A stretch of 64,000 nt of DNA. Source: an uncultured bacterium. Its GTDB lineage: Bacteria > Patescibacteriota > Minisyncoccia > Phycocordibacterales > UBA11359. Within the stretch, counting starts at the first letter, position 1. Every line of letters begins with the position of its first letter. Of this stretch, positions 20,127 through 45,386 are shown in pieces. Both the position numbers and the translations under genes were made by a program. The stretch spans positions 162,474 to 226,473 of the forward strand of contig CAIKZC010000010.1 of NCBI GenBank assembly GCA_903831815.1, read 5' to 3'. The notes beneath the pieces are model-generated. The model was given only the letters and a program-made list of their open reading frames with translations, was not told the origin of the DNA and did no database searches.

Positions 20127-20831
20127 ATGAAAAAAATATTATTTTACATGTCGTTGTTTGCGCTCCTTATCCTTCCGGTCGTCTCAAAGGCGGCAACCGT
20201 GTCGGTATCGACATCTGGAAACTATGTAGTTGGTCATACGTATAGCATAAATGTTCTAGTCGATCCGCAACAATCGACCGTATACAGCGCCAAAGTGGTT
20301 GTAAATTTTCCGGCTGATATATTGCGGGTTAGGGGATTCTCTTTTGAAAGCGGTTGGATGCCGTTAAGTCAGACCGGTTACGATTCCATCGATAATACCA
20401 ACGGTATTTTGATCAAAACCGGTGGCCTTCCGGCCGGATTGAGTTCGTCCAAAGTGTTAGGTACTATCACTTTCTATGCAGTTAAGTCCGGGACAGGGAA
20501 TATTTCGGTTGGCAGTGAATCACAATTATTGGATGCAAATAATCTAAATAATTTCACTGCTTCAACGAATATTCCTGTGAATGTTAAAAATGCAGCGGTC
20601 GTTGTGGCGAAAAAAACGGTTGCAGTAACTCAAGCCGTGCTTGCTAATTCAACTACAGTTGCAACTTCTTCAACCATATCAACAACCTCAGCAGTTGAAA
20701 CGCCGACTATAAATTCGATTCAAAACACTGCCGCGGCCGGCAATGCCGGATCAAATTATACTTGGCCGATTGTGATCGGAGTAATCATAGTGCTAATAAT
20801 TATCGGTTTCTTTGTTGGAAGGAAACGATAA
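20127..20831 (+). CDS. Membrane-anchored cohesin-like domain protein (signal peptide + ~150-aa beta domain + C-terminal TM anchor)
   Basis: Signal peptide MKKILFYMSLFALLILPVVSKA. Beta-rich domain resembling cohesin (VSVSTSGNYVVGHTYSINVLVDP...ILIKTGGLPAG...). C-terminal TM WPIVIGVIIVLIIIGFFVGRKR. It lies immediately downstream of a dockerin-bearing gene. Confidence 0.45.
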   Translation: MKKILFYMSLFALLILPVVSKAATVSVSTSGNYVVGHTYSINVLVDPQQSTVYSAKVVVNFPADILRVRGFSFESGWMPLSQTGYDSIDNTNGILIKTGGLPAGLSSSKVLGTITFYAVKSGTGNISVGSESQLLDANNLNNFTASTNIPVNVKNAAVVVAKKTVAVTQAVLANSTTVATSSTISTTSAVETPTINSIQNTAAAGNAGSNYTWPIVIGVIIVLIIIGFFVGRKR

Positions 20832-26456: not shown

Positions 26457-26484
26457 AAAATAATTAAAAATTAAATTCAAATTT

Positions 26485-26709: not shown

Positions 26710-26836
26710 ATGTGAAATTGAATATTAAATTACAACACTTTTTAGTATTGCAAAAAGAGAAATTTGTGCTATTATATGGACATAAAGGTGCTTGAAAGCA
26801 CTTTTTTGTTCTTTTATGACAAGGAGGTTGGGTTTC

Positions 26837-27088
26837 GTGATTTCGGAAGAATGGTCAAATGCCAAAACGTTCTCTCTTGTTACAGCTCAGTTTGTGCTGT
26901 ATTACAATGTGTTGTGGACTAGTGTGAGTAAGGAAGAGAAGGATTTGTACAGGGCGCTCATTGAACGACTCAAATGGCGTGCATCTCATGATGAAGCTCA
27001 AATCATGGATTTGTACGCTGATTTCTGCGATAAGTTTTGCATGAAATTCCCGCACATGCCCCCAATGATCGGTGAAATTGCAGCTTAA
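26837..27088 (+). CDS. Hypothetical small protein (GTG start after AGGAGG RBS; ORF-track start 26792)
   Basis: AGGAGG lies 9 nt upstream of GTG 26837; ~84 aa. Confidence 0.4.
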   Translation: MISEEWSNAKTFSLVTAQFVLYYNVLWTSVSKEEKDLYRALIERLKWRASHDEAQIMDLYADFCDKFCMKFPHMPPMIGEIAA

Positions 27089-27232
27089 TAAGTTTGCGAT
27101 AAGCCAACTCGACGTCGATTGCTTTTCAGCTTTCGGCGTTTTTTTATTTAACGAGCATGGTCTTTCAGGTGTGGATAACTTTGAATATTTTTTATATACA
27201 GTGAATGTTAATTTTGATAAAATGTAGGCAAT

Positions 27233-30200: not shown

Positions 30201-33200
30201 GTACAACAGGAAACGGTGGTTCAGCCAACTCTACTTCGGCATATGGAGGAGGATTAGTTGGAAGTAACACAGGAATTATTCAAAATTCATCGGCTCAAAA
30301 TTCAGTATCTGGTCTTGGAGGTTCAGGCGGAAAAGGAGGCGATGGTGTCGCTGCATTAACAGGATTTGCCGGTGGTGTCGGTGCCACAGGTGGTGCGGGA
30401 GGTATTCTATATATAGGAGGCATAGCCGGAGGTAATACATATTTAATTAGTAGTAGTTCGTATCTTAATGGAAGTGTTTCCGGTACGGCTGGTGCGGGAG
30501 GATCTGCCGGAGTTGGTGGTGCCGGTGGAAACTGGGCAGGTGGATTGGCAGGTACAGCCGGCACGGCTACGGTCGGAGCGGCTATTTATGCCGGAGGAGC
30601 AATTGGTCGTAATGATTATTTAGTTATTTCTAATGTTTATGCAACAGGGAATGTTGCAGGTACATCCGGTGCTGGTGGTGCCGGAGCAAAAGGTGGCGAC
30701 GGCGGCACAAGTCTAAATGGTGTCGTCGGAAGTGCCGGAGCTTCCGGAGGTGTTTCATATATCGGAGGACTCATCGGATATCACAACAACGGAGAAATTC
30801 TAAATTCATGGGCGACCGGAAGTGTTATTGCTAATGTCGGAGTTGCAGGCAATGGTGGCGGTGGCGGTAATGGTGGTACTGGAGCTGCGTCAACTGTTGG
30901 TGGCATCGGTAACACAGCCGGTAACGGCGGTGCGGGTGGCAACGCTTTCGGTGGCGGTCTTGTTGGCGTGACCAACTTAGGTACAATTACAAATTCTTAC
31001 GCGACGGGAAGTACCACGGTGACCGCCGGCGCTGGTGGCGTTGGTGGACTTGGAGGCACTGGTGGCGCCGGCGGTTCAAACGCAATCGGTGGTGCCGGTG
31101 GTGCCGGAGGTGCCGGTGGCACAGGTGGAGCCGCTTATGCCGGTGGACTTGTCGGACAAAATAATGCAATCATTCAATCAAATTCATGGGCTAGTGGAAG
31201 CGCGACCTCAACCGGAGGAATTGCCGGGGATGCCGGCGCCGGCGGCGCCGGCGGAACCACCACCGCTAGTACTGTCAACTCAGGTGTTGCCGCTGCGGGA
31301 GCGTCTGGTGGAACGGGTGGTACCGGTGGAGCCGCTTATGCCGGAGGATTGGTAGGAAATAACACAAATACGATAACTGATTCATATGCTATCGGAGGAA
31401 TTATAGTAGCCATTTCAACGCCGGGTAAAAACGGTGGATTATCCGGAGTGGCGGGAAACGGTTCGGCTGGAGGGTCGAGTCATACTGGCGCGGTTGGTGC
31501 TACTGGTGCCGCTGGTGGCGGCGGTGCTCTCGCTTATGCCGGAGGATTAGTAGGACAAAATTCATCAACGATTACAAATTCGCATTCCGACCAAGGCATA
31601 GCGAAAGCTACCGGAAATGCTGCGGGTAACGGCGCTGATGGCGGAGCTGGCGGTGTTGGCGGAACGGGCGGAAACGGAGGTGTCGGTGGAGTTGGTGGTA
31701 TCGGCGGAGCTGCCGTTTCAATCTTTGCCGGGGGACTTGTTGGGTATAACGTAGCTGGAATTATTCAATCTAATTCACATTCGTCTGACGACGCTATAGT
31801 TGTTGGACAAGGTGCCGGTAATGCCGGTAACGGCGGTGCCGGCGGTACTGCGGCAGCTGGAGGAGTCGGCGGCTTTTATTCTGCCGGTGGTCCCGGCGGT
31901 GCCGGAGGTTTGGTTGGAAGCAATACAGGAATTATTGATAGTTCATACGCAACCGGGAATTCAACTTCTACGGGAGGTCTAGGTAGTTCATATGGTACAG
32001 GCGGTAATGGAGGTAGTGGATCTACTGGCGCAACCGGTGGAACATTTACGCTTACCAGTAGTCCTGCTCGAACCGGTGGTTATGCTGCTGTTGGTGGCTT
32101 AGTAGGTTTAAATAATGCAAACGGCGCTATTCAGGGTATTTGTTATGCAAATGGAAATGCTGTGGGAATTGGAGGCAATGGCGGATTTGCAAGCAGTTCA
32201 CCAAATGGTGGTAACTCAACTGGTGCAGTTGCCGGCGCTGCGGGCATTGCTGGTGGTGCTGGAGGTGCCGGAGGAGGTGCTTATGCGGGAGGATTAGTGG
32301 GATACAACTTATCTGTTATAAGTACCAGTTCTTATGCGACAGGAAATGCGTCTTCAACTGGCGGTACTGGTGGCGCCGGCGGCAACGGTGGAAATGGTGG
32401 CTATGGCGGATCAGCTGGGGTGGCTGGTGTAAATGCCGGTAACGGTGGCGCTGGCGGAACAGCTTATTCCGGAGGAATTATAGGATTGAATGGAACTATC
32501 GGATCCTCGGTCATAACTAACGAGGGTACTATTGGTAATGCAAATTCAACTGGCATTATTACTGCTTATGGCGGGACCGGAAATACCGGTGGCTCTGGCG
32601 GCAATGGTGGCAATGCTACAAGTACAGCTGCATATATTGGGGGTGGCGGAGGTACCGGAGGTACCGGTGGCGCCGGTGGCACAAGTGCAGTTGGTGGTGC
32701 TGCTGGGTATAGTGTTGGTTATGTTAAAGATATTTCATACACAGTTTTGGGTTCAAATTTAAATTCTTTGGGTGGAGCAGCAGGCAATGGTGGAGGCGGT
32801 GGTTACGCTGGAGCCAGCGGAAACATATCAGCCGGTGTTGGTGCTACTGCCGGTAACGGCGGTATTGGTGGCGCTGGCGGAAATACGTTGCTAGGTGGAC
32901 TAGTAGGATATAATGATGGATATATAATCAATTCTAATATTCATATAAATGGAAATCTTTCGGCAAGTGGCAGAATTGGAGGTAACGGTGGCACCGGAGG
33001 TAACGGTGGAGATGCAACCAACGGTGTTGGAGGACATAGTGGTGGAGTCGCAGGTACGGGAGGCACCGGAGGCGCTGGCGGTACTGTCGGTATAGGAGGA
33101 CTTGTTGGACTAGCTAATGGAATTATTACAAATTCTCATAGCGATGGAGACATGATCGTTGTTTTAGCTGGCGGTAACGGAGGAATTGGCGGTAACGGAG

Positions 33201-36200
33201 GAATAGGTGGACTTTCAAGTACTACTATGGCCACTGCCAAAAACGGCACCGGTGGTGCAGGAGGTACAGGAGGAGCGGCCGGGTACGTTTATGCTGGAGG
33301 TCTTATCGGATACAATAATACTGCTGACACGTATTTTGATAATATTTATTCTAATAATAATGTTATTGCCAATGGAGGAGTTGGAGGCAACGGCGGATCT
33401 GCGGCAACTAGTACAGTTGGTGCTAACGGCAACACCGGAGGTGCAGGTGGAATTCCAAACTATCTCAGTGCTGGTGGTCTTATTGGAAGCATTACAGCAG
33501 CAGGGCTTTCTTTGACGAATTCTTATGCAACTGGAAACGTAAACGCCACGGCCTTTGCCGGAGGACAGGGTATTATCGGTAGTATCGGAGGGAATGGCAC
33601 GACAACTATGCTTGGCGGCGGCGGAGGAATTGGTGGTGCTGGCGGTACTGGTGGAGGAGTTATGGGCGGAGGTCTAGTTGGTTATATTTCTGGTGGTATG
33701 GTTTATATCGGCACTTCTACTTATGCCACCGGTGATGTAAATATTACTGCGGGAGCTGCTGGTGCCGGCGGTCAAGGTGGTGATGGAGGAGTTGGGAACG
33801 GAGCGCCTGGCGGATTGGGAGGTACAGGTGGCGCTGGAGGTACGGGTGGCGCTGCATACGGTGGTGGACTTATAGGATATATTACTTCAGGAGAAGTTAT
33901 TGGTGCGCATGCCAACGGTAATGTTGTTGCAAATGGAAATAGGGGGGGTGACAGCGGTAACGGTGGTAAAGGTGGTGATGGAGGGGTTGGAACTGTCGGT
34001 GGAGTTGGTGGTACCGGAACAGTTGGAGCAACTGGAGGTGCGGCTTATGCTGGGGGACTTGTGGGTACAAATGCAGGAGCCACAATTCAAAATTCATATT
34101 GTATTACCGGTTTAGTTACCGGAATCGGAGGTAATGCTGGTAATGGCGGTATCGGAGGTAATGCCGGTGTAACCGGAAATCTTACAGCTTCTACCACAGC
34201 CGCCGGTGGTGTCGGTGGAAACGGTGGTGTTGGTGGAGGTACTGGCGTAGGTGGATTGGTCGGATATAATACTTCAGTTAAAGCGATCATAAATAATTCT
34301 TATGCTACAGTAAATGCAACGACAACTGGTGGAACTGGCGGGACTGGTGGCGCCGGAGGTAATGGAGGTGACGGATCAGCTAACGGTAGTACTGCTCTGA
34401 CTGGCGGAGTTGGAGGAGTTGGAGGAAACGGAGGTGCCGGTGGCGGCGCCGGTGGTAACGCAGTTCAGATTGGTGGTCTTGTGGGACTCAATACTTTAGG
34501 AACTATTAATAATTCTTTTGCTCAATTTGGAACGATGACTGCTTTTGGAGGACTCGGCGGTACCTCTACCATTGGAGGTTTTGGTGGAGTCGGAACAACC
34601 ACTGGTTTGAATGGAATTGCTGGTATCGGAGGTACTGGTGGCGCCGGCGGTGCTATTTATGCTGGAGGTTTAGTTGGTTACACTACCGGTGTTGTTCAAA
34701 ATTCATTTTCTAAAACAACTTTAAATATTACAGGTGGATCCGGCCGAGACGGAACAGTTGGTCGTGATGGAGTTGCAAACAGAGGATCGGCTGGTTCCGG
34801 TGGCGGCGCCGGTGGAGCATCAGGTCTAATTTATGCAGGAGGTCTCGTAGGCTTCACTACATCTGATATTATTTCTTCATATGCAAGTTACGATTCTGGT
34901 TCCGGGGCGGGAAATATTAGTGTGACGGGAGGAACTCCTGGAAACGGAGCGAAAGGCGGTGATGGAGGGTTAGGACTTACAAATGGTGGACCTGGTGGCA
35001 ATGGTGCCGTTGCAGGTGGTGGTAAAGGCGGTGATGCCGGAGGAGCTTTTGTTGGTGGACTTTTAGGATATTCTTCAGCTGCAGGAATTGTTTCTTCTTC
35101 ATCGGCAGACACAATTACAATTTTGGGAAATGAACAAAAAGGCGGAAAGGGAGGTGATGGAGGAAAAGGTGGAAATGGCACCGTGAACTTTATTGGTGGT
35201 TTAGGTGGAATTGCCGGAGCTGGTGGAGCTGGTGGAATTCGCGGATATGGAGGGCTTGTCGGTGACAACTTGGGAGTTATACAAAATTCATCTTCTTCAA
35301 TTAGTATTTTACTTTATGGAGGAAACGGTGGTGATGGTGGCATAGGCGGCGCCGGCGGTGCTTCGGGACCGACGACGTCCTCTTCGACAGCCGCAACTGG
35401 TGGAGCGGGTGGAGCTGGCGGCGCCGGTGCTGCTACTTACGGCGGAGGTTTGATTGGCCGTACAGCCGGGACTTTTCAAATAAGTGATTCGTTTGCTTTG
35501 GGTGATGTAAATATTTTTGGTGGTACAGGTGGAGTTGGTGGCACCGGCGGTGATGGCGGTGACGGTTCAACCGGAACCAGTACCCATGTTGGATCGGTTG
35601 GAGCTTTGGGTGGCGCGGCCGGAGTTGGTGGTGCAGCTTATTCCGGAGGCTTGGTTGGATTTAATAACTCTTCAACAGGTGTCGCAAACTTTTTTAATGA
35701 TTTTGCCATAGGTGATGCTTTTGCAACTGGAGGTAACGCTGGAAGCGCTGGAACTTCCGGTAAAGGTGGTGCTTCAAGAATTACTCAAAACGGCGGCGCC
35801 GGTGGTGGTGCTGTTACTGCTGTGGCTGGCGGAGCCGCATACGCCGGTGGTTTGATTGGATACAACTTAATCACTACCGGTATCAGCGATATTTTAAATT
35901 CATACGCGGCGGGTATAGCTAGCTCGACTGGAGGAATAGGAAGTCTCGGAAGTAATGGTGGTAATGGAACAAGTGCGGTTGCCACTTCAACTGGAGGTGT
36001 CGGTGGCGCCGGAGGTGCAGGAGGAGCGGGAGGCGCTGGCGGTGAAGCTGATGCCGGAGGTTTGGTTGGATACAGCAGTGTTACTACGGGAGGAAATAAT
36101 TATTTCAACACATATTCTACAAGCATAATTGTATCTGCTTTGGGCGGTAAAAGCGGTAACGGCGGAAGTGCCGGAAGATCTGGTACTGGTGGAGTGGGCG

Positions 36201-39200
36201 CCGCCGGAGGCAACACAGGGGCCAGTGGTGCGAGTGGCAACGGTGGTGCCGCTTACGCCGGAGGTTTGATCGGTAACACTAGTTCGTCCGCAAACAATGA
36301 TTTGGATATTGATACTAGTTATTCAACCGCAAATGCTTACGCAACAGGCGGAGCAAGTGGTGACGGAGCTCCAGGGGTTGTTGGTGGTACAGGAGGAACA
36401 ACTAGTAAAGGAGGTCTCGGAGGTAACGGCGGAGGGACTGGAAACGGCGGAGTTTCCGCTGCCGGTGGTCTTGTCGCTTCAAGTACTGCAATTATTGAAG
36501 ATGGATCTTATGCAACAGGTAACGCAAGTTCAACCGGCGGTGTAGTTGGAATTGCTGGTATCGGCGGCGCCGGCGGACCAACAGGCACTTCTACTAATGG
36601 TGGTACAGCCGCTACCGGAGGCAACGGCGGTATCGCCGGCAACGCCGGCGCCGCTTATGCCGGAGGTCTCGTTGCCAGCAACTCGTCAATTGGAATTATT
36701 TTAAATTCTTATTCAACTGGTTCTGTTAATGCTGTTTCTCAGAATGGTGGAGATGGGGGAAATGGTGGTACCGGTGGTGATGGATCAAACGGAATTTCAG
36801 GTCACTCGGGAGGTTTGGGTGGTAACGGCGGCGCCAGTGGTGCGGGTGGTACAGTTTACGCCGGAGGTTTCGTTGGAAATAATGTAAATTCCGCAAACAT
36901 AATTAGTACTTGTAATTCTACAGGTTTGACTGTGACCGGTGTTGCCGGAAACGGTGGAACGGGCGGCAAAGGAGGAGGTGGTGGTGTGCCGGGAATTGTA
37001 TCCGGACTTAATGGTGGCGCGGGCGGACTTGGTGCAACATCAATCACAGGCGGATCTTTATATCTTGGAGGATTTGTCGGTTATAACGACGGCATAATTC
37101 TTAATTCGTATTCAATAAGTAATGCGACAGGTACGGCTGGAACGGGTGGAACAGGAGGAGCCGGTGGTAATGGAGTAAAAGGATACACAGGAACTGGTGG
37201 CACGGGTGGTGCCGGAGGATTAGCTGGAGTAGCTGGTGCCGGAGGCATTGCCTATGGTGGTGGATTTGCAGGCTATAATAATACAAACAGACTGATCAGA
37301 GATTCTTATTCAACCGGTACATTGACAATAACCGGAGGGAATGGGGGTACCGGCGGTGTTGGCGGTTCAGGTGGTAACGGTGGAAACGGTAATTCCGGCT
37401 GGCCTGGAGGTACAGGTGGAAATGCCGCCACGAGTACCGCTGGAATAATCGGTGGAATTACTTATGGAGGAGGATTAATTGGTCTCAATTATGGTGGAAC
37501 GATTGTTTCGGATTATTCATTAGGAACTGTAATAGTTAGAGGATCTAATGGTGGTGCTAGTGGCGCCGGTGGTAAGGGTGGTGATGGAGGAGATTCTACT
37601 AGTGCCGGTTATTCTGGCGGTAACGGAGGTATTGCTGGAGCTACGGTATCGGCGGGGAATGCCGGTGATGTTTATGCCGGAGGTTTAATAGGTGCTTTCA
37701 ATTTCGTGGGCGCTTTAATTCAAAGTTCTTGGTCATCAGGGAACGTTTATGCATTCGGTGGAAACGGTGGTCTTGCTGATCTTGCTGGTGTGGCTGGAAC
37801 CGGGGGTGTTGGTGGTGCAGGTGCTGCCGGAGGCAACGGTGGCGCAAGCACTGGTGGTGCCACTGGCGGTTCGGGAGGATCAACAAATGCAGGTGGACTT
37901 GTTGGACTCGGATATGGCGGTAACGCAAGTTATGCTACTGGTAATGTAGTAGCTATCGGTGGAAATGGAGCTTATGGAGCAACTGGTGGAAAAGGTGGTA
38001 ATGGAGGTAAAGGAGGATCAGGCACAGGTGGTAATGGTGGTAATGGAAATACCGGCGGAATAGGTGGTGCGGCTGGCAAGGGTGGCGATGTAAACGCTGG
38101 GGGTTTTATAGGATTTGATTCCAGTAATCCATCAAATATTTATTCATTAGGTAATATCAGTTCAACTGCAGGTCTGGCTGGTATTGGTGGTAATGGTGGA
38201 GCCGGAGGAAATGCCGGAGCTGCCGGTAGTGCCAGTTCAACTGCTGGTGTTAATGGTAATGGAGGTAACGGCGGTGACGGTAAAGCAAACGGCACTAATT
38301 ACGCTGGAGGCCTTGTGGGTTTCGTCTTTGGTGGTTACACAATTACAAATAGTTACTCAAGAGGAACGGTTTTTGCAAGCACTACTATTACAGGTAGTGT
38401 CGGAGGCTCTGTTGGAGCGGCTGGCACCGGTGGAAGCGGCGGCTCATCCGGATCTTTAACTGGAGCTACAGGCGGTTCGGCCAGTTCGGTCGTCGGAGGC
38501 ATGGCTGGTTATGGGAGTGGTACTTTTTTCTACACAAGTTATTGGGATACTAATACGTCCGGAACGACTACCGCTACCGGTAACGGCTCTTCTTCGGGCA
38601 TGAATGGTACAACGACAGCTAATATGATGAAGAAGGCAACATTCTCCGGATGGGATTTTACTTCGCTGGTTTGGAATATTGCGGAAGCTTCAACCTATCC
38701 ATATTTTGATTATCAAACTGTTCCTGTTGCACCGACAAATGTCGTGGCTGTGAGAGGCGACCGCAGTGCTACAATCACATTTACACCGCCAGCCAACACC
38801 GGTTCAGCTATTTTGTATTACACTGCCACCTCAAATGATGCTCGTGTGGCTACGAGCAGTACGGCTTCAATTACTTTCACCGGTCTCACTAATGGTGCTT
38901 ATTATACTTTCACCGTGACCGCAACTAATATGATTGGTACCAGTTCTCCTTCGGCAACAAGTAATTCCGTAAAACCTGCGGCAGTACCGGCTGCGCCAAC
39001 AATCACTTCAATCACAGGTGGAATAGGTAGCGCCACGATCACTTTTTCAACCACGACAAGCAACGGCTCGGATATTTTGTATTACACTATCACCTCAACT
39101 GATGGATTGCATACAATTACGAGTGGTAATTCGCCGGTCACTATTGGTGGTTTGACCAACGGCGCGACTTACATGTTCACCGTGACTGCAACCAATGATG

Positions 39201-42200
39201 TTGGCACAAGTTCAATATCCGGCACAAGTGATCCTGTAACTCCTGCCAGAGCTCCCGATGCTCCATCAATAATTTCCGTAACGAGAGGCGATGGAAATGT
39301 GACAGTAACTTTTTCAACGACAACATTTAACGGCGGTTCAAATATTTTGTATTACACCGTGACTTCTAATGACGGACACACTGCGGTTGGCGGTGATTCA
39401 CCGTTAACTGTTTTATATCTCAATGATGGAACACCATATACTTTCACCGTCACCGCAACAAATAACGTCGGCACAAGTTCGCCTTCGGCAACAAGTGATT
39501 CCATAACTCCGGCCAGAGTTCCCGATGCTCCATCAATAATTTCCGTAACTAGAGGTGATGGAAATGTGACGATTACTTTTTCAACGACAACATATAATGG
39601 TGGTTCAAATATTTCATATTATTCAATCACATCAAGCGATGGACAGATTACGACTGGTGGCACTTCGCCGATTATATTTAGAAATCTTAATAATGGCACA
39701 CCATACACTTTCACGATCACCGCTACAAACGACGTTGGCACTAGCACTTCCGTAGGAGTAAGTGATACTGTAATTCCGGCTAGAGTTCCAGATGCTACGA
39801 TTATTGGATCGGCAACGAGAGGTGTTAATGAAGCCACAATTAATTTTTCAACGACGACATATAATGGCGGTTTAAGCATTTTGTATTACACCGTGACAAC
39901 AAACGACGGATTGATTTCAGTTAGTGGCGGTACGTCGCCACTCACAATCAAAGGTCTTACAAATGGAGTAAATTATACTTTTACCGTCACGGCTACAAAT
40001 GCAGTTGGCACTAGCTCTGCATCATTTGCTTCAAATGGAGTTACGCCTGCCGATGTACCTGCCGCTCCAACGATTACCTCTATCTTCGGAGGTATCAATA
40101 GAGCGACGATTACTTTTTCAACTACGACTAGTAACGGCTCAACAATTTTGTATTACACCGTCACTTCAAATGATGGATTGCATACTATTACCAGTGGCAA
40201 TTCACCGGTTACATTTAATGATTTAACTAACGGCACCACCTATACATTTACTGTTACTGCAACCAATGGTGTCGGTACAAGTTCTTCTTCCAGTGTTAGT
40301 GATCCAATCATGCCTGCCGGCGTACCTGATGCTCCAATAAATGTTTTCGCCACTAGAGATGATGGTAAAGCGTTGATTACTTTCACAAAACAGAATGATA
40401 ACGGTTCGACGACTTTGTATTACACCGCCACATCAAATGACGGATCGAAATTCGGCACGAGCACTTCAAATTCAATTCTGGTTACAGGATTGGCAAACGG
40501 CACAATTTACTTTTTCACAGTAACCGCAACTAACGGAGTAGGTACCAGTTCCATTTCAACTGCTAGCAATTTTGTCATTCCGGCAACCACTCCAAATTCT
40601 CCATTGATTGGATCGGTCATAAGAGGTAACGGCGAAGCGACAATTAATTTTTCATATCCAAATGATAATGGTTCAACGATTCTTTATTACACCGTCACTT
40701 CAAACGATGGTCTACATATCGCGACTGGTGGCGCTTCACCTCTTGTGGTTACCGGTCTCACTAATGGTGCAACTTACACTTTTACAGTAACCGCAACCAA
40801 TGACGTCGGCACAAGTTCTCCTTCCGGCACAAGTGATTCTGTCACTCCTGCAACTACTGCGAGCGCACCGACAAATATTACTGCCACTGGTGGTACTCAC
40901 GAAGCAACGATTTATTTTACACCGACATTACCGGCCAATAACGGAGGGTCAAATATTATCCACTACACTGTTACTTCGAATGATGGATTGCATTCCGCTA
41001 CAGGTGGTACTTCGCCGATTACCGTGTTCGGTCTCACTGACGGCGTCACTTATACTTTCACAGTTACTGCAACCAATGACGTAGGTACAAGTTCTCCATC
41101 GGCGACAAGTAACTCGGTTGTTCCGGCCGACGTCCCAGACGCACCAACTTATGTAAACGCAATTGGCGGTAATGGAGAAGCTACAATTACTTTTACGTAT
41201 CCAAATAACAATGGTTCTGTTATTACTTACTACACCGTCACTTCAAATGATGGATTGCACACCGCAACCGGTGGCGCTTCACCTATTACTATTACCGGGC
41301 TTTCCAATAATACAACTTACACATTTACAGTTACCGCTACTAACGCTGCAGGAACAAGCACTCCATCTGGAACAAGTAATTCTGTTGTTCCTTCCGCTGT
41401 TCCTGATGCGCCGTCAAATGTGGTGGCCGTTCGTGGTAGGGGTGAAGCCACGATTTCCTTTACGTATCCAAACAATAACGGTTCGATCATTACCTACTAC
41501 ACCGTCACTTCAAACGATGGACAGACTGCGACGGGTGGTACGTCGCCAATAACCGTTAAAGGTTTGACGAATGGTTTGAATTATACTTTTACTGTCACCG
41601 CCACAAACGCCAACGGTACGAGTTCTGCTTCAATCTCAAGCGATGCAGTGATGCCTGCGACCTATCCTAATGCGCCGGGAAATCTTGCCGCAACACTTGG
41701 AAACGGTAGTGCTAATTTGACTTGGTCGGCTCCATTTAACGGCGGTTCAGCTATAACTCTTTATACCGTGACATCAAACACCGGAGGTCATACGGCTACA
41801 ACGACCGGTACATCGGTTACCGTTTATGGGTTAACGAATGGCATGCCATATACTTTTACGGTTACAGCAAGCAATGATATGGGCATGAGCACGTCTTCCA
41901 ACACAAGCAATTCGGTGATTCCGGCTAATGTTCCGGGTGCGCCAGGAAACCTTACAACATTAGTTTTGGATAGCAGTATAAGTTTGTCTTGGTCCGCCCC
42001 AACGTCGACCGGAGGATCGGATGTCACGGATTATATCGTTCAATATAAATTAACAAACAATGGAACTTGGTCTGCTTTTGATGATGGCGTTGGAACCAAT
42101 CTGGTAACGACTGTTACAAATCTATCAAATAATAGTTCTTATGATTTTCGTATTTTGGCTAAAAATGCGGCCGGTCAGAGTTTTCCGTCTAATATAGCAA

Positions 42201-42817
42201 GTGCAACGCCAGGTCCGCTCGCGCAAGTAAAAATCGTCGGATTTAATAATTTAACAATTCCGAATATTACCACGGCTTTGCTCATAACCAACGAAGGGAC
42301 GACAACTTACGAATACTCGTACAATTGGTGTGTGACCGATTCAGAATCAAATTCATGTGGAGGTGGAGATGATGTCTTTAATTCGACGGATTTAAAAAGG
42401 ATTGATCCGAAACAAGATTATAATACAGTTTTGGCTTCCATTGTGCCATCAGCCGGTAATTATTGGTTGCACGTAAAAGTAAAATACGGTTCGGAATATT
42501 CTGAAGCCATCCAGTCATTTAAGGCCGTTTCAGCATCGGTTCCACCTTCTGGAGGGGGTGGTGGAGGCGGCGGGGGAGGCGGCGGCAGCGTAGCCGCAGT
42601 TGACACTACTCTAAACACTGCTTGCGTTGGCGCCGATTTTAACTGTGACAGTAAAGTCAATTCGGTTGACTTCTCTATAATGTTGGCTTTTTGGAAAACT
42701 GCATTTCCGTTTAAAAATTCTCACGTTGATATTAACGGCGACAAGCAAGTCAATTCCGTGGACTTTTCGATCTTGCTCTATCAATGGGGCAAAAAGCCGA
42801 TTTTATTCAAAAAATAA
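27233..42817 (+). CDS. Giant (5194-aa) secreted cell-surface protein: N-terminal signal/TM, acidic Ser/Thr-rich stalk, ~40 Gly-rich GLUG-like repeats, 13 fibronectin type III domains, beta-sandwich domain, (Gly)12 linker, C-terminal dockerin
   Basis: Uninterrupted 15.6-kb ORF. Recurrent units ...YAGGLVGxNxGxIxNSYATGN... are embedded in GGxGG tracts. 13 tandem ~90-aa repeats end ...YTFTVTATNxVGTSSPS. Two dockerin Ca-loops (DFNCDSKVNSVD and DINGDKQVNSVD) are present. Confidence 0.9.
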   Translation: MFVRFFHISKPVLISVSLFLICILPLKSLADDNIVVTDVSTSISDTSLISDIVESESISDVVTPTTIDTNPAEISTSTSTDTDTENDIATSTATSVTSSENSSTTTEATSTDSNVVVSTSTPNISEQLTSTGKLVTVSATDEQEAITPMINVPVRVAISEIFKVGQENKIKIKWQNNDGQDMQFTAIDEDGNGYIDHVEWIVPHLSTQTFDLIYISDALLLDTNKNPIEDIFDIVGTQDQNYKTINDGQYVRMTFETKLNNTRYISVFGKPHDASQSSSIEVYPVYTDAQGNTTEGNPIQTTFQIDHDGEYQIYLTDLQTPTDVFDLRAVGNIDIDYIVDTIGPPLNAFWVGGTGRWYADAAAHWATSTNGLTSAGNLPGPNTNVTFDSNSGSASSVVTIDATTSPINITSLTISTYTGTITQSASLIISGSYSQASAATFTSPNPASSTLSVGGNFSVTAGTFRRYTGMGITTDPFVIYDVYGLQGMKTGLSNSYKLYGDIDATNTALWNTIGSTTTGFVPVGTNTTSFNGNFDGAGYTIRNLYINSTTTNYVGLFGYATSTIQNVNLSNISITATSTFGTIGGNGNPGNASTSPTAGGTGSVGGVGANLYIGGLVGFGAGFISNVNVSGIISGFGGAGGKAGDGGKGGNTTSGATTAGAGGATVSDAVAIGGTVYIGGLVGYYQVGDITNANSTVSVIGIGGAGGAGGKSGDGGTNLGTGIGGAGGATVGVAGAGGAIYAGGLAGWVNAGSIITSSATGNVTATGGVGGTAGGAGVGGAGGGAAIGGNGGAGGTGGAGGASYAGGLVGYNFGNIEDGSFATGIVQSYGGISGAGTIGGYGGASATSTSGTAASGGNGGTGGAGAIAYAGGLVGQNAVGGIITGSTSPIYATGTTTAVGSAGKDGQNGGAGGDGSKGTAHTGGLGGNGVAGSIGGGAYAGGLVGLNSGIIISSNSNTGLVTVTGGAGGAGGTGGSGGLKGTSGTSGTGGTTGNGGSANSTSAYGGGLVGSNTGIIQNSSAQNSVSGLGGSGGKGGDGVAALTGFAGGVGATGGAGGILYIGGIAGGNTYLISSSSYLNGSVSGTAGAGGSAGVGGAGGNWAGGLAGTAGTATVGAAIYAGGAIGRNDYLVISNVYATGNVAGTSGAGGAGAKGGDGGTSLNGVVGSAGASGGVSYIGGLIGYHNNGEILNSWATGSVIANVGVAGNGGGGGNGGTGAASTVGGIGNTAGNGGAGGNAFGGGLVGVTNLGTITNSYATGSTTVTAGAGGVGGLGGTGGAGGSNAIGGAGGAGGAGGTGGAAYAGGLVGQNNAIIQSNSWASGSATSTGGIAGDAGAGGAGGTTTASTVNSGVAAAGASGGTGGTGGAAYAGGLVGNNTNTITDSYAIGGIIVAISTPGKNGGLSGVAGNGSAGGSSHTGAVGATGAAGGGGALAYAGGLVGQNSSTITNSHSDQGIAKATGNAAGNGADGGAGGVGGTGGNGGVGGVGGIGGAAVSIFAGGLVGYNVAGIIQSNSHSSDDAIVVGQGAGNAGNGGAGGTAAAGGVGGFYSAGGPGGAGGLVGSNTGIIDSSYATGNSTSTGGLGSSYGTGGNGGSGSTGATGGTFTLTSSPARTGGYAAVGGLVGLNNANGAIQGICYANGNAVGIGGNGGFASSSPNGGNSTGAVAGAAGIAGGAGGAGGGAYAGGLVGYNLSVISTSSYATGNASSTGGTGGAGGNGGNGGYGGSAGVAGVNAGNGGAGGTAYSGGIIGLNGTIGSSVITNEGTIGNANSTGIITAYGGTGNTGGSGGNGGNATSTAAYIGGGGGTGGTGGAGGTSAVGGAAGYSVGYVKDISYTVLGSNLNSLGGAAGNGGGGGYAGASGNISAGVGATAGNGGIGGAGGNTLLGGLVGYNDGYIINSNIHINGNLSASGRIGGNGGTGGNGGDATNGVGGHSGGVAGTGGTGGAGGTVGIGGLVGLANGIITNSHSDGDMIVVLAGGNGGIGGNGGIGGLSSTTMATAKNGTGGAGGTGGAAGYVYAGGLIGYNNTADTYFDNIYSNNNVIANGGVGGNGGSAATSTVGANGNTGGAGGIPNYLSAGGLIGSITAAGLSLTNSYATGNVNATAFAGGQGIIGSIGGNGTTTMLGGGGGIGGAGGTGGGVMGGGLVGYISGGMVYIGTSTYATGDVNITAGAAGAGGQGGDGGVGNGAPGGLGGTGGAGGTGGAAYGGGLIGYITSGEVIGAHANGNVVANGNRGGDSGNGGKGGDGGVGTVGGVGGTGTVGATGGAAYAGGLVGTNAGATIQNSYCITGLVTGIGGNAGNGGIGGNAGVTGNLTASTTAAGGVGGNGGVGGGTGVGGLVGYNTSVKAIINNSYATVNATTTGGTGGTGGAGGNGGDGSANGSTALTGGVGGVGGNGGAGGGAGGNAVQIGGLVGLNTLGTINNSFAQFGTMTAFGGLGGTSTIGGFGGVGTTTGLNGIAGIGGTGGAGGAIYAGGLVGYTTGVVQNSFSKTTLNITGGSGRDGTVGRDGVANRGSAGSGGGAGGASGLIYAGGLVGFTTSDIISSYASYDSGSGAGNISVTGGTPGNGAKGGDGGLGLTNGGPGGNGAVAGGGKGGDAGGAFVGGLLGYSSAAGIVSSSSADTITILGNEQKGGKGGDGGKGGNGTVNFIGGLGGIAGAGGAGGIRGYGGLVGDNLGVIQNSSSSISILLYGGNGGDGGIGGAGGASGPTTSSSTAATGGAGGAGGAGAATYGGGLIGRTAGTFQISDSFALGDVNIFGGTGGVGGTGGDGGDGSTGTSTHVGSVGALGGAAGVGGAAYSGGLVGFNNSSTGVANFFNDFAIGDAFATGGNAGSAGTSGKGGASRITQNGGAGGGAVTAVAGGAAYAGGLIGYNLITTGISDILNSYAAGIASSTGGIGSLGSNGGNGTSAVATSTGGVGGAGGAGGAGGAGGEADAGGLVGYSSVTTGGNNYFNTYSTSIIVSALGGKSGNGGSAGRSGTGGVGAAGGNTGASGASGNGGAAYAGGLIGNTSSSANNDLDIDTSYSTANAYATGGASGDGAPGVVGGTGGTTSKGGLGGNGGGTGNGGVSAAGGLVASSTAIIEDGSYATGNASSTGGVVGIAGIGGAGGPTGTSTNGGTAATGGNGGIAGNAGAAYAGGLVASNSSIGIILNSYSTGSVNAVSQNGGDGGNGGTGGDGSNGISGHSGGLGGNGGASGAGGTVYAGGFVGNNVNSANIISTCNSTGLTVTGVAGNGGTGGKGGGGGVPGIVSGLNGGAGGLGATSITGGSLYLGGFVGYNDGIILNSYSISNATGTAGTGGTGGAGGNGVKGYTGTGGTGGAGGLAGVAGAGGIAYGGGFAGYNNTNRLIRDSYSTGTLTITGGNGGTGGVGGSGGNGGNGNSGWPGGTGGNAATSTAGIIGGITYGGGLIGLNYGGTIVSDYSLGTVIVRGSNGGASGAGGKGGDGGDSTSAGYSGGNGGIAGATVSAGNAGDVYAGGLIGAFNFVGALIQSSWSSGNVYAFGGNGGLADLAGVAGTGGVGGAGAAGGNGGASTGGATGGSGGSTNAGGLVGLGYGGNASYATGNVVAIGGNGAYGATGGKGGNGGKGGSGTGGNGGNGNTGGIGGAAGKGGDVNAGGFIGFDSSNPSNIYSLGNISSTAGLAGIGGNGGAGGNAGAAGSASSTAGVNGNGGNGGDGKANGTNYAGGLVGFVFGGYTITNSYSRGTVFASTTITGSVGGSVGAAGTGGSGGSSGSLTGATGGSASSVVGGMAGYGSGTFFYTSYWDTNTSGTTTATGNGSSSGMNGTTTANMMKKATFSGWDFTSLVWNIAEASTYPYFDYQTVPVAPTNVVAVRGDRSATITFTPPANTGSAILYYTATSNDARVATSSTASITFTGLTNGAYYTFTVTATNMIGTSSPSATSNSVKPAAVPAAPTITSITGGIGSATITFSTTTSNGSDILYYTITSTDGLHTITSGNSPVTIGGLTNGATYMFTVTATNDVGTSSISGTSDPVTPARAPDAPSIISVTRGDGNVTVTFSTTTFNGGSNILYYTVTSNDGHTAVGGDSPLTVLYLNDGTPYTFTVTATNNVGTSSPSATSDSITPARVPDAPSIISVTRGDGNVTITFSTTTYNGGSNISYYSITSSDGQITTGGTSPIIFRNLNNGTPYTFTITATNDVGTSTSVGVSDTVIPARVPDATIIGSATRGVNEATINFSTTTYNGGLSILYYTVTTNDGLISVSGGTSPLTIKGLTNGVNYTFTVTATNAVGTSSASFASNGVTPADVPAAPTITSIFGGINRATITFSTTTSNGSTILYYTVTSNDGLHTITSGNSPVTFNDLTNGTTYTFTVTATNGVGTSSSSSVSDPIMPAGVPDAPINVFATRDDGKALITFTKQNDNGSTTLYYTATSNDGSKFGTSTSNSILVTGLANGTIYFFTVTATNGVGTSSISTASNFVIPATTPNSPLIGSVIRGNGEATINFSYPNDNGSTILYYTVTSNDGLHIATGGASPLVVTGLTNGATYTFTVTATNDVGTSSPSGTSDSVTPATTASAPTNITATGGTHEATIYFTPTLPANNGGSNIIHYTVTSNDGLHSATGGTSPITVFGLTDGVTYTFTVTATNDVGTSSPSATSNSVVPADVPDAPTYVNAIGGNGEATITFTYPNNNGSVITYYTVTSNDGLHTATGGASPITITGLSNNTTYTFTVTATNAAGTSTPSGTSNSVVPSAVPDAPSNVVAVRGRGEATISFTYPNNNGSIITYYTVTSNDGQTATGGTSPITVKGLTNGLNYTFTVTATNANGTSSASISSDAVMPATYPNAPGNLAATLGNGSANLTWSAPFNGGSAITLYTVTSNTGGHTATTTGTSVTVYGLTNGMPYTFTVTASNDMGMSTSSNTSNSVIPANVPGAPGNLTTLVLDSSISLSWSAPTSTGGSDVTDYIVQYKLTNNGTWSAFDDGVGTNLVTTVTNLSNNSSYDFRILAKNAAGQSFPSNIASATPGPLAQVKIVGFNNLTIPNITTALLITNEGTTTYEYSYNWCVTDSESNSCGGGDDVFNSTDLKRIDPKQDYNTVLASIVPSAGNYWLHVKVKYGSEYSEAIQSFKAVSASVPPSGGGGGGGGGGGGSVAAVDTTLNTACVGADFNCDSKVNSVDFSIMLAFWKTAFPFKNSHVDINGDKQVNSVDFSILLYQWGKKPILFKK
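28900..38550 (+). repeat. Degenerate tandem coding repeats (Gly-rich GLUG-like units) inside the giant gene
   Basis: GGN-rich codon repeats. Antisense frames give spurious Pro-rich ORFs. Confidence 0.7.
38717..42217 (+). repeat. Array of 13 tandem ~270-290-nt FN3-domain coding repeats inside the giant gene
   Basis: Repeated protein pattern: PxAPxxxxAxxGxxxATIxFxxPxxNGGSxIxxYTVTSNDGxxxxTGGxSPxTxxGLTNGxxYTFTVTATN. Confidence 0.8.
42551..42586 (+). repeat. GGN codon tract encoding (Gly)12 linker
   Basis: ggagggggtggtggaggcggcgggggaggcggcggc. Confidence 0.8.
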
Positions 42818-42823
42818 TTACCT

Positions 42824-43702
42824 ATGAACAGACCTAAAATATTAACGCTATACTTTGCCGTCGGATTCGTAGGATTATTTCTGTTTTTTGCTCCGCAAAA
42901 TTTGTTTGCAGCACAATTAATTTTAAAAAATGTTACAAATACCGTGGCCGGGGACGGAACAACGATCATTGAAGCCCGCATTGACCCACAATCGGAAAGG
43001 TTGAATGTCGTTGAAGGTGCGATTAATTTTCAGGGAGCCATTACTGACAAACTTTCGGTCGCAGTTGAAACGGGTGGATCAGTCTTAACAATTTGGCCGA
43101 CAGTGCCAAAATTTCTTTCAAATGAAAAGAGTATTCGTTTTGTTGGCGGTGTTCCTGGAGGTTTTGATCATGAAGGATTACTTTTTCGCATTCGACTTTT
43201 TGCGACCGTATCGGGCGATATCACAATCTCATTGCCCCAAGGTGCTGTTTATTTAAATGACGGAAAAGGAACTAAAGAACCCGTTTCTGTGCAATCTGTA
43301 ATTTTGCATCTTGATAAGCAAGATCCAAACACGATTAGTACATCATCGCCGGATAATATTCCGCCGTATTTTGATTCGGTTGAAATTGGGCAAGACCCTA
43401 ACAGTTATGACGGTAAGTCTTTTGTCAGTTTTCATGCGACTGATGATATTTCCGGTGTCGCACGATATGAGGTTACCGAAGGATCATCAACAACGGAAAT
43501 TACAGACGGTGTTTATGTGTTTAAAGATCAGGATCGCAAGGTTCCCGTGCTTATTACCGCTTATGATCAGGTTGGCAACAGTCAGACAACGGAAATTCCT
43601 GCTAGATTTAATAAGACAAAAGATGTTATACTGGTATTAATATTCGTTGTCATTTTATTAGCTGTTCTTCTTTATGGATTTAAAAAGATTATTAAAAAAT
43701 AA
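42824..43702 (+). CDS. Membrane-anchored cohesin-like domain protein (second instance)
   Basis: Signal peptide; beta domain ...TIIEARIDPQSERLNVVEGAINFQG...IRFVGGVPGG...AVYLNDGKGT; C-terminal TM VILVLIFVVILLAVLLYGF. It starts 7 nt after the stop of the dockerin-bearing giant gene. Confidence 0.45.
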   Translation: MNRPKILTLYFAVGFVGLFLFFAPQNLFAAQLILKNVTNTVAGDGTTIIEARIDPQSERLNVVEGAINFQGAITDKLSVAVETGGSVLTIWPTVPKFLSNEKSIRFVGGVPGGFDHEGLLFRIRLFATVSGDITISLPQGAVYLNDGKGTKEPVSVQSVILHLDKQDPNTISTSSPDNIPPYFDSVEIGQDPNSYDGKSFVSFHATDDISGVARYEVTEGSSTTEITDGVYVFKDQDRKVPVLITAYDQVGNSQTTEIPARFNKTKDVILVLIFVVILLAVLLYGFKKIIKK

Positions 43703-45386
43703 ATTAGCATACGGCATCGCTGTATTTGCGGTTAGTTTATTCTTTTTTGGTTGCCAAATTGCCAGTGCCGCAACAATGCAGATCAATTCCGGTTCTGCAA
43801 CTCTATCGCCTGGTGATACGGCGACATTATATGTTGTGTTAAATTCCGAAGGGGTTGCCATAAATAATGCCGAAGCTACCATAAAATTTCCGACCAATTT
43901 GTTTAGTGTTGTTTCGATAAATAAAGCCAATTCAATCTTTTCCTTGTGGGTGGAAGACCCGAGTTTTTCGAATTCTTCCGGGGTGATCAATTTTGATGGC
44001 GGTGTGCCAACACCCGGTTTTAATGGTACTCAAGGTCCGGTCATTGCGATTGTTGTAAGAGCCAAAGCTGTAGGTCAGGCTAATTTTTCTTTTACCAATG
44101 CGGCCGTTCGAGCCAATGATGGATTAGGGACTGATGTTTTGAGCAATAAGCAGGGGAAGACGCTAAATGTTGTGGAAGTAGCCCAGCCGGCGGATGTTGT
44201 GGCACCGACACCAACGGTGACTACTTCAAATCTCGCTTTGCAAATATCTTCTTTGACTCATCCAAATCAAGATCAGTGGTATAGGGATAATAATCCAATA
44301 TTCCAGTGGACTGTGCCGGATGGTTCGGATACAGTTAAGACAACCGTCGACAACAATACTTCGGGCACGCCTCATGTATCTTACAGTCCGGCGATTAGCA
44401 AAAAAGCGGTCAAAGATTTGGCTGATGGCGTTTGGTATTTTAAAGTTCGCGCTCACAAGGGCGATGTTTGGGGACCAATCAGCACTTATATAGTTAGAGT
44501 CGATAATACGTCTCCGGAAAAAGGCAACGTTGTCTTTTCTTATAACGATAACAGCAAGATCTTAAATATTAGTAGTGATATTCAGGATGTCACGTCCGGA
44601 ATCGATCATTATGAAATTTACATTAATGACGTATTGATTAAAACTGTTCCCGCAATAGAATTTGTTAACGGAAATTATAGTTTAGCTTTTAATGCATCTG
44701 GAGACAGTACGGTAAAATTGGTGGCAATCGACCGTGCTGGCAATAGTCTTGAAACGTTAGGATCATTCAGTGCTTCCTCTACGGCTACGCTGTCACTGCA
44801 ATCGATTCCGTCATCGGTGTCTGTCGATGAACAGTTGCTAATTCGCGGCTTGAGTCAAAATCCGAACACTGATGTAACCGTCAATGTTAAAAATGATAAT
44901 AATGAACCAATTGTATTACAGACGAAATCAAATTCCGATTCCAGTTTCTTTGTTCTGACACCAAAATTAAAATCCGGCGATTATAATATTTGGGCAGAAA
45001 CAGGTTCCGGAGACAATAAAGTTTCATCTCAACATATTTTCACGAAGACAACATCGCAGATGTTGGTTACCATAGGATCGTTCACTATAACCATGTTTAA
45101 TTTTGTTATGGTAATTCTCTTGGTTGCACTAATTTTGATTGTAGGCGCGTATATCTTAGGACGTCGTAACAGTAGGTATTCGCGAAGTCTGAATATTCGC
45201 AAAGCGTTACTCAAAGGGGACGATTCCAAAATACTTATAATGCTGAAAAAACGTCTCGAAAAACATTTGGAAATTATTCAGCATACCCGACACAACAGAG
45301 TTCTAACTAAAGAAGAAAAAGAAATCAAAGAAGCTATAGAAGGCGATTTGGACGAAGTCGATAAAGCTATGTCAGGTCAAAAATAA
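43674..45386 (+). CDS. Membrane-anchored cohesin-like + Ig-like domain protein (third instance)
   Basis: Signal peptide; cohesin-like domain ...ATLYVVLNSEGVAINNAEATIKFP...INFDGGVPTPGFNG...AAVRANDGLGT; further beta domains; C-terminal TM MVILLVALILIVGAYILG plus cytoplasmic tail. Confidence 0.45.
   Translation: MDLKRLLKNKLAYGIAVFAVSLFFFGCQIASAATMQINSGSATLSPGDTATLYVVLNSEGVAINNAEATIKFPTNLFSVVSINKANSIFSLWVEDPSFSNSSGVINFDGGVPTPGFNGTQGPVIAIVVRAKAVGQANFSFTNAAVRANDGLGTDVLSNKQGKTLNVVEVAQPADVVAPTPTVTTSNLALQISSLTHPNQDQWYRDNNPIFQWTVPDGSDTVKTTVDNNTSGTPHVSYSPAISKKAVKDLADGVWYFKVRAHKGDVWGPISTYIVRVDNTSPEKGNVVFSYNDNSKILNISSDIQDVTSGIDHYEIYINDVLIKTVPAIEFVNGNYSLAFNASGDSTVKLVAIDRAGNSLETLGSFSASSTATLSLQSIPSSVSVDEQLLIRGLSQNPNTDVTVNVKNDNNEPIVLQTKSNSDSSFFVLTPKLKSGDYNIWAETGSGDNKVSSQHIFTKTTSQMLVTIGSFTITMFNFVMVILLVALILIVGAYILGRRNSRYSRSLNIRKALLKGDDSKILIMLKKRLEKHLEIIQHTRHNRVLTKEEKEIKEAIEGDLDEVDKAMSGQK

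Follow-up and report, generated by a model that had tools for sequence, protein, structure and literature searches.

A putative membrane-anchored cohesin-dockerin cassette for display of a giant surface protein in a Patescibacteria genome

The 64,000 nucleotides of DNA analysed here ("the window" in what follows) are positions 162,474 to 226,473 of contig CAIKZC010000010.1 (assembly GCA_903831815.1), from an uncultured, ultrasmall bacterium of the Patescibacteria (Parcubacteria group). The window is about 41% G+C and its plus strand holds nearly all of its genes, including all of those whose protein products are dissected below. Three of these genes adjoin one another and are the subject of this report: a 5,194 amino acid (aa) open reading frame (ORF) at 27233..42817 that encodes a giant surface protein ending in a dockerin module, and two genes for predicted membrane proteins with a cohesin-like beta domain, a short one, COH1 (42824..43702, 292 aa), and a long one, COH2 (43674..45386, 570 aa). 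COH1 starts 6 nt past the stop codon of the giant gene, COH2 overlaps COH1 by 29 nt, and ychF is the next gene after COH2; public assemblies of the same contig have identical gene calls for all three. We refer to the dockerin-bearing protein as the "cargo" and to the three genes together as a cassette, which probably serves to tether the cargo to the cell.

The giant protein has a C-terminus of the form ...PPS-G12-SVAAVDTTLNTACVGA-DFNCDSKVNSVD-FSIMLAFWKTAFPFKNSHV-DINGDKQVNSVD-FSILLYQWGKKPILFKK. A flexible linker of exactly twelve glycines (aa 5107–5118, 42551..42586) is followed by a dockerin module of two near-symmetric repeats (aa 5134–5187, 42632..42793), which is recognised both by Pfam Dockerin_1 (PF00404, gathering score 22.9; 30.1 bits on a 338-aa piece of the protein and 26.0 bits on a 2,694-aa piece) and by a hidden Markov model (HMM) derived from cassette dockerins (102 bits). 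Its two calcium loops, DFNCDSKVNSVD at 42635–42670 and DINGDKQVNSVD at 42728–42763, both fit the pattern [DN]x[DN]x[DN]xxx[DN]xxD, with D or N at positions 1, 3, 5, 9 and 12, and each is followed by a helix of the type FSI(M/L)L..W (DFNCDSKVNSVD+FSIMLAFW and DINGDKQVNSVD+FSILLYQW). A preliminary description of this DNA had placed two canonical dockerin loops after a (Gly)12 linker at this point, and both the arrangement and the identification hold, the module passing Pfam with two canonical loops; the linker itself begins about 50 nt before 42600, where that description had the feature start.

COH1 and COH2 are built alike. Each begins with a signal-peptide-like N-terminus (aa 1–28 in COH1 and 1–31 in COH2, as read from the translations) that is closed by an Ala-rich (LFA, ASA) site, and continues with the beta domain (COH1 aa 29–158, 42908–43297; COH2 aa 32–162, 43767–44159), an immunoglobulin (Ig)-like stalk and a transmembrane (TM) helix. 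The stalk is a single domain in COH1 (aa 176–257, with weak DUF7743 and OmpL47-type matches) and about three domains in COH2 (~aa 185–455, with Big_13 and DUF7743 matches in homologs); such matches are weak in the proteins of the window and clearer in their homologs. The TM helix of COH1 (~aa 268–286) is followed by a short basic tail, only ~8 aa in the short cohesin protein, whereas that of COH2 (~aa 461–495, 45054–45158) is followed by a helical, predicted cytoplasmic tail of ~75 aa (~aa 496–570, 45159–45383) that is conserved in the alignment. Tails of the COH2 type have a median length of 77 aa across loci and are charged, with the consensus ...LKKRLEKHLEILQ..R..R.L(T/S)KEEKEIKEAIE.DLDEVD..., and this conservation, next to the ~8 aa of COH1, suggests a role for COH2 beyond tethering.

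The beta domains of COH1 and COH2 are 30% identical by BLASTP (E 1e-9) and, on that alignment, are homologous. Pfam Cohesin (PF00963) has no match in either of them or in the third cohesin-like protein of the window (that of gene 20127, below), even at E values up to 1, and scans of the three proteins with Pfam and NCBIfam return only the weak DUF7743, OmpL47-type and Big_13 stalk matches. No cohesin came up when PDB sequences were searched with the proteins one by one or with the family profile; the nearest match (7urp_A, E 0.021) is not significant. An AlphaFold2 (AF2) model of COH2 aa 32–169, made with the alignment of its sequence homologs, has a predicted local distance difference test score (pLDDT) of 96.7 and has 9–10 strands in order, and when it is compared with the PDB by Foldseek all of the top 50 matches are cohesins (best 1g1k_A, E 4e-9, TM-score ~0.75). 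These fold matches span cohesin types I, II and III and include the non-cellulosomal cohesins of Archaeoglobus fulgidus (2xdh) and Clostridium perfringens (2jh2, 2vo8 and 2w1n). The fold evidence comes from the COH2 model, and COH1 and the 20127 protein are tied to COH2 through sequence profiles: an HMM made from outside homologs only gives 43.6 bits with COH1 and 38.2 bits with the 20127 protein, and hhalign joins the 20127 family to the COH family with a probability of 99.8%.

The homologs of these domains also lead to known cohesins. PF00963 matches 14 of 22 homologs of the COH2 family (set A1, best E 3.6e-9), 6 of 34 in set A4 and 6 of 19 homologs of the 20127 family (set A5). The sequence homologs of the domain come from Patescibacteria, and several are labelled "cohesin domain-containing protein" at source (by NCBI for some). 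The cohesin profile matches 14,013 clusters at 50% identity, and the top match of the family profile among 1.84 billion representatives is a scaffoldin-like protein of 2,276 aa (P0027) in which nine Pfam cohesins (E 1.4e-82) are combined with Big_7 and fn3 domains and the C-terminus is a dockerin, so multi-cohesin assemblies exist among the relatives of the cassette cohesins. Homologs, fold and profile reach, three independent lines, thus show the beta domain of the downstream proteins to be a cohesin, an assignment that depends on fold and transitive homology because the proteins of the window themselves miss Pfam Cohesin. We note that several small relatives (P0013, P0015–P0020 and P0023, 192–237 aa) combine in one chain a family cohesin with a dockerin that belongs to a third subtype ("SILI.NWG") and have no obvious membrane anchor; they could join head to tail with their own kind, or each could fold back on itself.

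The window holds a second, simpler cassette. The gene at 17589..20120 encodes an 843-aa cargo protein with a polysaccharide deacetylase domain (Pfam Polysacc_deac_1, E 2e-18), two He_PIG Ig domains (E 1e-18) and a C-terminal dockerin (aa 792–842, 19962–20114), and the gene at 20127..20831, which starts 6 nt after it, encodes a solo cohesin anchor of 234 aa made up of a signal peptide, a divergent cohesin (aa 22–132, 20190–20522), a Ser/Thr-rich linker, a TM helix (~aa 210–230) and an RKR tail. The deacetylase-protein dockerin has 48.6 bits with the cassette HMM and 17.1 bits with Dockerin_1, under the gathering score; its first calcium loop is canonical and its second (LSGSNDAVGLKD) is degenerate and keeps only the Asp at position 12, which suggests a single binding mode for this dockerin in this organism. 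The dockerins encoded 5' of 20127-like cohesins in three related loci (L081, L082 and L084) keep two canonical loops. In pairwise comparison the 20127 domain matches the two downstream beta domains with E values of 1e-3 and 0.013, and, together with the profile comparison given above, this makes it a cohesin of the same superfamily at a greater distance. The upstream gene of its homologs ends in a dockerin in 3 of 3 independent, differing neighbourhoods. Sortase anchoring was considered for the 20127 protein, the C-terminus of which has 15.9 bits with TIGR01167, equal to the cut-off of that model, and was rejected, as there is no LPXTG motif. A family-2 glycosyltransferase gene (15934–16959) and a small ORF lie 5' of the dockerin-tagged deacetylase gene, and the three may form a small envelope-glycan module.

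The preliminary description had given the three cohesin-like proteins one layout (signal peptide, beta domain, C-terminal TM anchor), a common sequence pattern and, for two of the genes, a place directly after a dockerin gene, in an order said to occur twice. The translations bear out the layout, and the three domains align with one another and with cohesin profiles and folds. The pattern is only partly common, GG[VL]P being present in all three and NDGxGT in the two downstream proteins and not in the 20127 protein. Both dockerin-anchor pairs are also present as described, with the reservation that the first dockerin has one canonical loop and stays below the Dockerin_1 threshold.

The cassette was followed through related genomes by a scan with the cohesin alignment, one genome per species, that gave 269 confirmed stretches, of which the best 80 were kept and 79 loci were analysed; related loci were picked with a COH2 peptide pattern, and ORFs called in 20-kb loci were scored with the cassette-derived cohesin and dockerin HMMs. 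All of these best 79 loci are from Patescibacteria-type metagenome-assembled genomes (Paceibacterota, Falkow-, Nomura-, Adler-, Taylor-, Kaiser-, Yanofsky- and Doudnabacteria, and some automatically labelled assemblies). The order C-terminal-dockerin protein, short cohesin-TM protein (mostly 193–320 aa), long cohesin-TM protein (~470–620 aa) is found in 64 of the 79, and upstream DNA is missing in 4 or 5 of the remaining 15. A median of ~3 bp lies between the dockerin gene and the cohesin gene after it, the cohesin genes as a rule overlap each other, and the dockerin match ends 0–12 residues before the stop codon, with one exception. A run of at least five glycines is present within the last 130 aa of 60 of the 67 dockerin-bearing ORFs, and two canonical calcium loops are found in 53 of the 67 cassette dockerins. 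Without exception, the dockerin ORFs (all 65 detected in the related loci and both of those in the window) are followed directly by a cohesin gene in the same orientation, a gene order far beyond chance.

Conserved synteny was considered as a trivial cause of this order and was rejected, since the flanks of the cassette differ among loci: YchF is encoded downstream in 10 of the 79, and the G6PD and 6PGL genes that lie upstream in the window occupy that place in none of them. This marks the triad as a unit in its own right rather than a consequence of synteny. Two cohesins are joined in one chain in L015, L026 and many representatives, and the existence of such fusion proteins shows that the two cohesins act together. 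We also note that in four loci without a dockerin gene (L013, L019, L043 and L044) a solo long-cohesin gene is preceded by a gene for a conserved protein of ~190–200 aa that has no dockerin and has the motif "...ALVDAGT.E..GPIASGLAKE...WKVG...PGAYYIK.SKIN..."; this arrangement is a variant cassette.

Since the three-gene order recurs in most of the related genomes examined, the cassette probably tethers variable surface proteins to the cell. The cargo proteins agree with one another at their C-termini, where beta domain, poly-Gly and dockerin align well, and share neither length nor content in their N-terminal parts. In the set of 37 complete cargo proteins (296–1,828 aa), which also have Ig domains, Dockerin_1 is found in 34, MG2 in 27, fn3 in 5 and an enzyme domain, glycoside hydrolases and other carbohydrate-active enzyme (CAZyme) domains included, in none; in loci cut by the flank the cargo reaches more than 3,100 aa, and the 5,194-aa protein of the window is the extreme member of the class. 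From N- to C-terminus the latter consists of a signal-peptide-like start, a Ser/Thr-rich stretch, GLUG/Gly-rich repeats, fn3 domains, a beta domain, the Gly12 linker and the dockerin. The Gly-rich GLUG-type repeats, as read from the translation, occupy ~3,300 aa (~aa 440–3790, approximately 28550..38602), with a unit of the form "...GGxGGxGG...YAGGLVGxN..." and a Pfam GLUG match of 22.1 bits against a gathering score of 20.5. They are followed by an array of at least 12 fibronectin-III domains (38720..42202; Pfam fn3 in 12 stretches, E 1e-92) and by the pre-dockerin beta domain (42215..42532, "...ITNEGTTTYEYSYNWCVTDSESNSCGGGDD..." in the consensus of the 37 complete cargo proteins), which is common to the cargo of other cassettes and has a mean pairwise identity of 44% in 62 of them; no family matched it in the Pfam scan, and the same kind of scan found no enzyme domain in the giant protein.

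Taken together, these features make it likely that the locus is a three-gene, non-covalent, membrane-anchored display cassette for variable and mostly non-enzymatic surface proteins. The alternative that survives best, which we nevertheless think unlikely, keeps the docking and makes the cargo the main envelope or lattice protein, comparable to an S-layer or coat, and the cassette the device that anchors the envelope. As a rule a locus holds one cassette, with housekeeping genes around it, and the cassette is found widely across the group. A conserved anchoring C-terminus, a variable N-terminus and a cargo rich in beta-sandwich domains (MG2 in 27/37) and free of enzymes are what a coat protein could look like; cargo proteins that range from 296 to 5,194 aa and differ in their domain sets are, however, a poor fit to a regular lattice subunit, and no S-layer family was matched.

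Display of the cargo by this cassette would require that the dockerin binds one or both of the cohesins, and, besides the strict gene adjacency, three lines of indirect evidence bear on this. The first is that dockerin subtypes follow cohesin subtypes. Dockerins encoded 5' of a cohesin pair have "VDFSI(L/M)L..W" helices and "PFKN" between the repeats, and those 5' of solo 20127-like cohesins have "DFN(L/V)LM.NW" (the "DFNLLM" subtype, in 3 of 3 independent contexts). The "DFSILL" and "DFNLLM" dockerins differ at positions 10 and 11 of each repeat, the positions that set specificity in cellulosomal dockerins, and the two pairs are apparently orthogonal. The second is covariation. Averaged over pairs in 62 triads, the dockerin is 65% identical, COH2 52%, the pre-dockerin domain 44% and COH1 33%, and the distance matrices of dockerin and COH2 are correlated with r = 0.59, a relationship that remains in a partial Mantel test given COH1 (r = 0.51, 0/2,000 permutations); the corresponding values are r = 0.05 for dockerin and COH1 given COH2, and r = 0.08 for dockerin and the pre-dockerin domain, which lies only ~30 residues upstream of it, given COH2. 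The third is conservation within the cohesins. Strands 8-3-6-5 form the dockerin-binding sheet in solved cohesins (standard strand numbering), and in the two cohesins conservation is higher in strands 3, 5, 6 and 8 than in 9, 1, 2, 7 and 4 (0.68 against 0.52, p = 0.002, and 0.55 against 0.35, p = 0.0003). An AF2 model of a fusion of the COH2 cohesin, natural linkers and the giant dockerin, made with an alignment of natural cohesin-dockerin proteins that is shallow over the dockerin and by a program that does not include calcium, has the cohesin well modelled and the dockerin at pLDDT <50, without secondary structure.

A less probable explanation is that these cohesin folds do not bind dockerin, and bind cell-wall glycan or act as spacers in some other envelope structure, the three genes simply being co-transcribed and the dockerin being merely a calcium-stabilised terminal module. 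AF2 gave no complex; the domains of the window are under the Pfam Cohesin threshold; and COH1 does not co-vary with the dockerin, all of which this explanation accommodates. It would leave unaccounted for the invariable place of the dockerin ORFs (65/65 and 2/2) directly 5' of a cohesin gene, the co-segregation of the subtypes, the better agreement of the dockerin with COH2 than with its own neighbouring domain and the greater conservation of the canonical binding sheet, and a cohesin that is paired with a dockerin has no other established function; we consider it quite improbable. A cellulosome-like polysaccharide-degrading complex of scaffoldin cohesins and dockerin-tagged CAZymes, which the family-4-type polysaccharide deacetylase with a dockerin in the second cassette and the nine cohesins and dockerin of P0027 might bring to mind, is very improbable, given that no protein of the window has more than one cohesin, that the 64 kb hold no more than two dockerin ORFs, that neither the giant cargo nor any of the 37 cargo proteins sampled has a CAZyme domain, that there is no carbohydrate-binding module, and that the anchors are C-terminal TM helices, with no S-layer homology (SLH) match and no LPXTG.

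In the display cassette that we favour, all three proteins would be exported through Sec by their N-terminal signal peptides. Both cohesin proteins would insert into the cytoplasmic membrane in type I orientation through the single C-terminal helix, with the basic tail inside, and each cohesin would be held off the membrane on its Ig-like stalk, one domain long in COH1 and about three in COH2. The giant fibre, which has no anchor of its own, would dock through its C-terminal dockerin on the Gly12 tether, in a calcium-dependent manner and chiefly to COH2, and so be displayed on the cell surface; the second, orthogonal pair (17589 and 20127) would display the polysaccharide deacetylase likewise. 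An adhesin or host-contact role fits the cargo, since it has a GLUG beta-helix and fn3 domains, lacks an enzyme domain and is hypervariable between genomes. The proposal of a dedicated surface-display system, made in the preliminary description from the repeated gene order, gains support from the occurrence of the cassette in 64 of 79 loci with differing flanks, with the physical binding remaining a prediction from sequence.

Several points weigh against this interpretation or limit it. That the cohesins bind the dockerin, and which of them is its partner, we infer. The cohesins of the window miss Pfam Cohesin, and a profile search of PDB sequences found none. The Mantel result is suggestive only, because similar evolutionary rates can inflate such a correlation, and the divergence of COH1 does not track that of the dockerin. 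About 10 loci that have enough upstream DNA contain a long-cohesin gene and no adjoining dockerin gene, and because loci were picked with a COH2 pattern and the best 80 of 269 stretches were kept, the cassette frequencies given here describe a selected subset. Finally, adhesin is the most likely role of the cargo as judged from domain content only.

A bolder proposal, to which we give a small chance of being right, is that the Parcubacteria-group Patescibacteria in general use the cassette to anchor a hypervariable host-contact or coat protein to the envelope, with cargo and cohesins in a 1:2 complex. The dockerin, with its internal symmetry, would then bridge the short and the long cohesin, and the conserved ~75-aa tail of COH2 would link the fibre with the inside of the cell and so serve clustering, force bearing or signalling. 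If so, cohesin-dockerin binding would here be a trans-envelope coupling and not merely a tether, and the orthogonal subtypes within one genome would amount to a small addressing code for surface proteins.

Some further features of the giant gene and its surroundings deserve mention. From 28000 to 38000 the G+C content rises to 0.48–0.54, against ~0.40 elsewhere, with a GC skew of up to +0.35; both are due to the Gly (GGN) codons of the repeat region, and the rise is not a mark of foreign DNA. A tandem DNA repeat at 39176–39910 (period 267 bp, 2.1–2.6 copies, 75–78% matches) covers neighbouring fn3 modules and indicates a fairly recent internal duplication among them. The giant protein has one further, isolated calcium-loop motif, resembling an EF-hand or dockerin, close to its N-terminus (27779–27835, aa ~183–201, "IDEDGNGYIDHVEW"), with an EF-hand_1 match of E 0.038, well below threshold. 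The gene is preceded by an unusually long non-coding stretch of 776 bp (26457–27232) with a terminator-like hairpin at 26784–26805 and several promoter-like sites; Rfam has no match in this stretch and finds only two tRNAs in the window overall. Promoter and terminator scans inside the cassette gave nothing decisive.

A large part of the uncultivated diversity of bacteria belongs to the Patescibacteria, and to our knowledge little is known of how they hold large surface proteins or make contact with a host, type IV pili apart. According to 10.1101/2024.11.25.624915, every cultivated member has a life of attachment to other microbes. Conserved as it is, the cassette is easily recognised, and its dockerin tag would flag, in each genome, a variable and probably host-facing surface protein. 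It would also be a case of cohesin-dockerin pairing used for membrane-anchored display, far from cellulose degradation, and its at least two apparently orthogonal natural pairs are possible reusable parts for protein assembly.

The literature searched on cohesins and dockerins in Patescibacteria and their subgroups yielded no description of this cassette. Its parts are already known; what is apparently undescribed, as far as that literature shows, is their combination in a conserved operon of a dockerin-tagged hypervariable cargo and two TM single-cohesin proteins, with a conserved tail on one anchor, spread through the Parcubacteria group and with at least two orthogonal subtypes in one genome. 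In the cultivated Saccharibacterium Southlakia epibionticum, SEML1_0315 is an envelope protein of Ig/fn3-like domains that is described as having a dockerin domain and is essential in transposon sequencing (PMC10633639). Its gene has a hydrolase gene and a tRNA gene as neighbours, the words "cohesin" and "dockerin" are absent from the supplementary text of that paper, and we do not count it as an instance of the cassette, as far as can be told, for lack of neighbouring cohesin genes.

The dockerin-type giant proteins of Omnitrophota (10.1101/2023.11.21.568195) are likewise repeat-rich and predicted to be extracellular, belong to ultrasmall bacteria and have been proposed to act in attachment. 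They have many internal dockerin/EF-hand and thrombospondin repeats and their own C-terminal TM anchor, whereas the cargo here has one terminal dockerin and no anchor, the cohesin anchors being encoded by separate genes. The anaerobic methanotrophic (ANME) archaea, like the organisms considered here, are uncultivated, partner-dependent microbes, and their many dockerin and cohesin proteins have been proposed to serve in exterior attachment and cell-cell interaction (Chadwick et al. 2022, PMC9012536). These include dockerin-plus-multi-cohesin proteins, S-layer-dockerin proteins and dockerin-tagged substrate-binding proteins; a cassette of cargo and two successive cohesin-TM proteins is not described in PMC9012536.

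Cohesin and dockerin modules, non-cellulosomal ones included, are known from each of the three domains of life (Peer et al. 2009, as cited in PMC9012536). In that account the non-cellulosomal modules usually have one cohesin per protein, no large scaffoldin and a setting outside cellulose degradation, as here; they are scattered on enzymes and toxins, whereas the modules described here form a conserved, group-wide three-gene operon with two membrane cohesins and a hypervariable cargo. With the clostridial cellulosome the cassette shares the cohesin fold (3ul4 and 4dh2 are among the fold matches) and the two-repeat calcium-loop dockerin. It fails the features that define a cellulosome, namely a multi-cohesin scaffoldin, CAZyme cargo on the main cassette and SLH or sortase anchoring, and differs further in its non-enzymatic giant fibre cargo, its strictly adjoining partner genes, its small-genome Patescibacteria hosts and sequences too divergent for Pfam Cohesin. 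Among its closest known counterparts are the single-cohesin anchoring scaffoldins of the OlpA/OlpC type in Clostridium thermocellum, in which a surface cohesin takes the C-terminal dockerin of a secreted partner, as is proposed here; the clostridial anchoring scaffoldins are held by SLH domains or sortase, whereas the anchors of this cassette have no LPXTG and end in a C-terminal TM helix, followed in COH2 by the conserved cytoplasmic tail.

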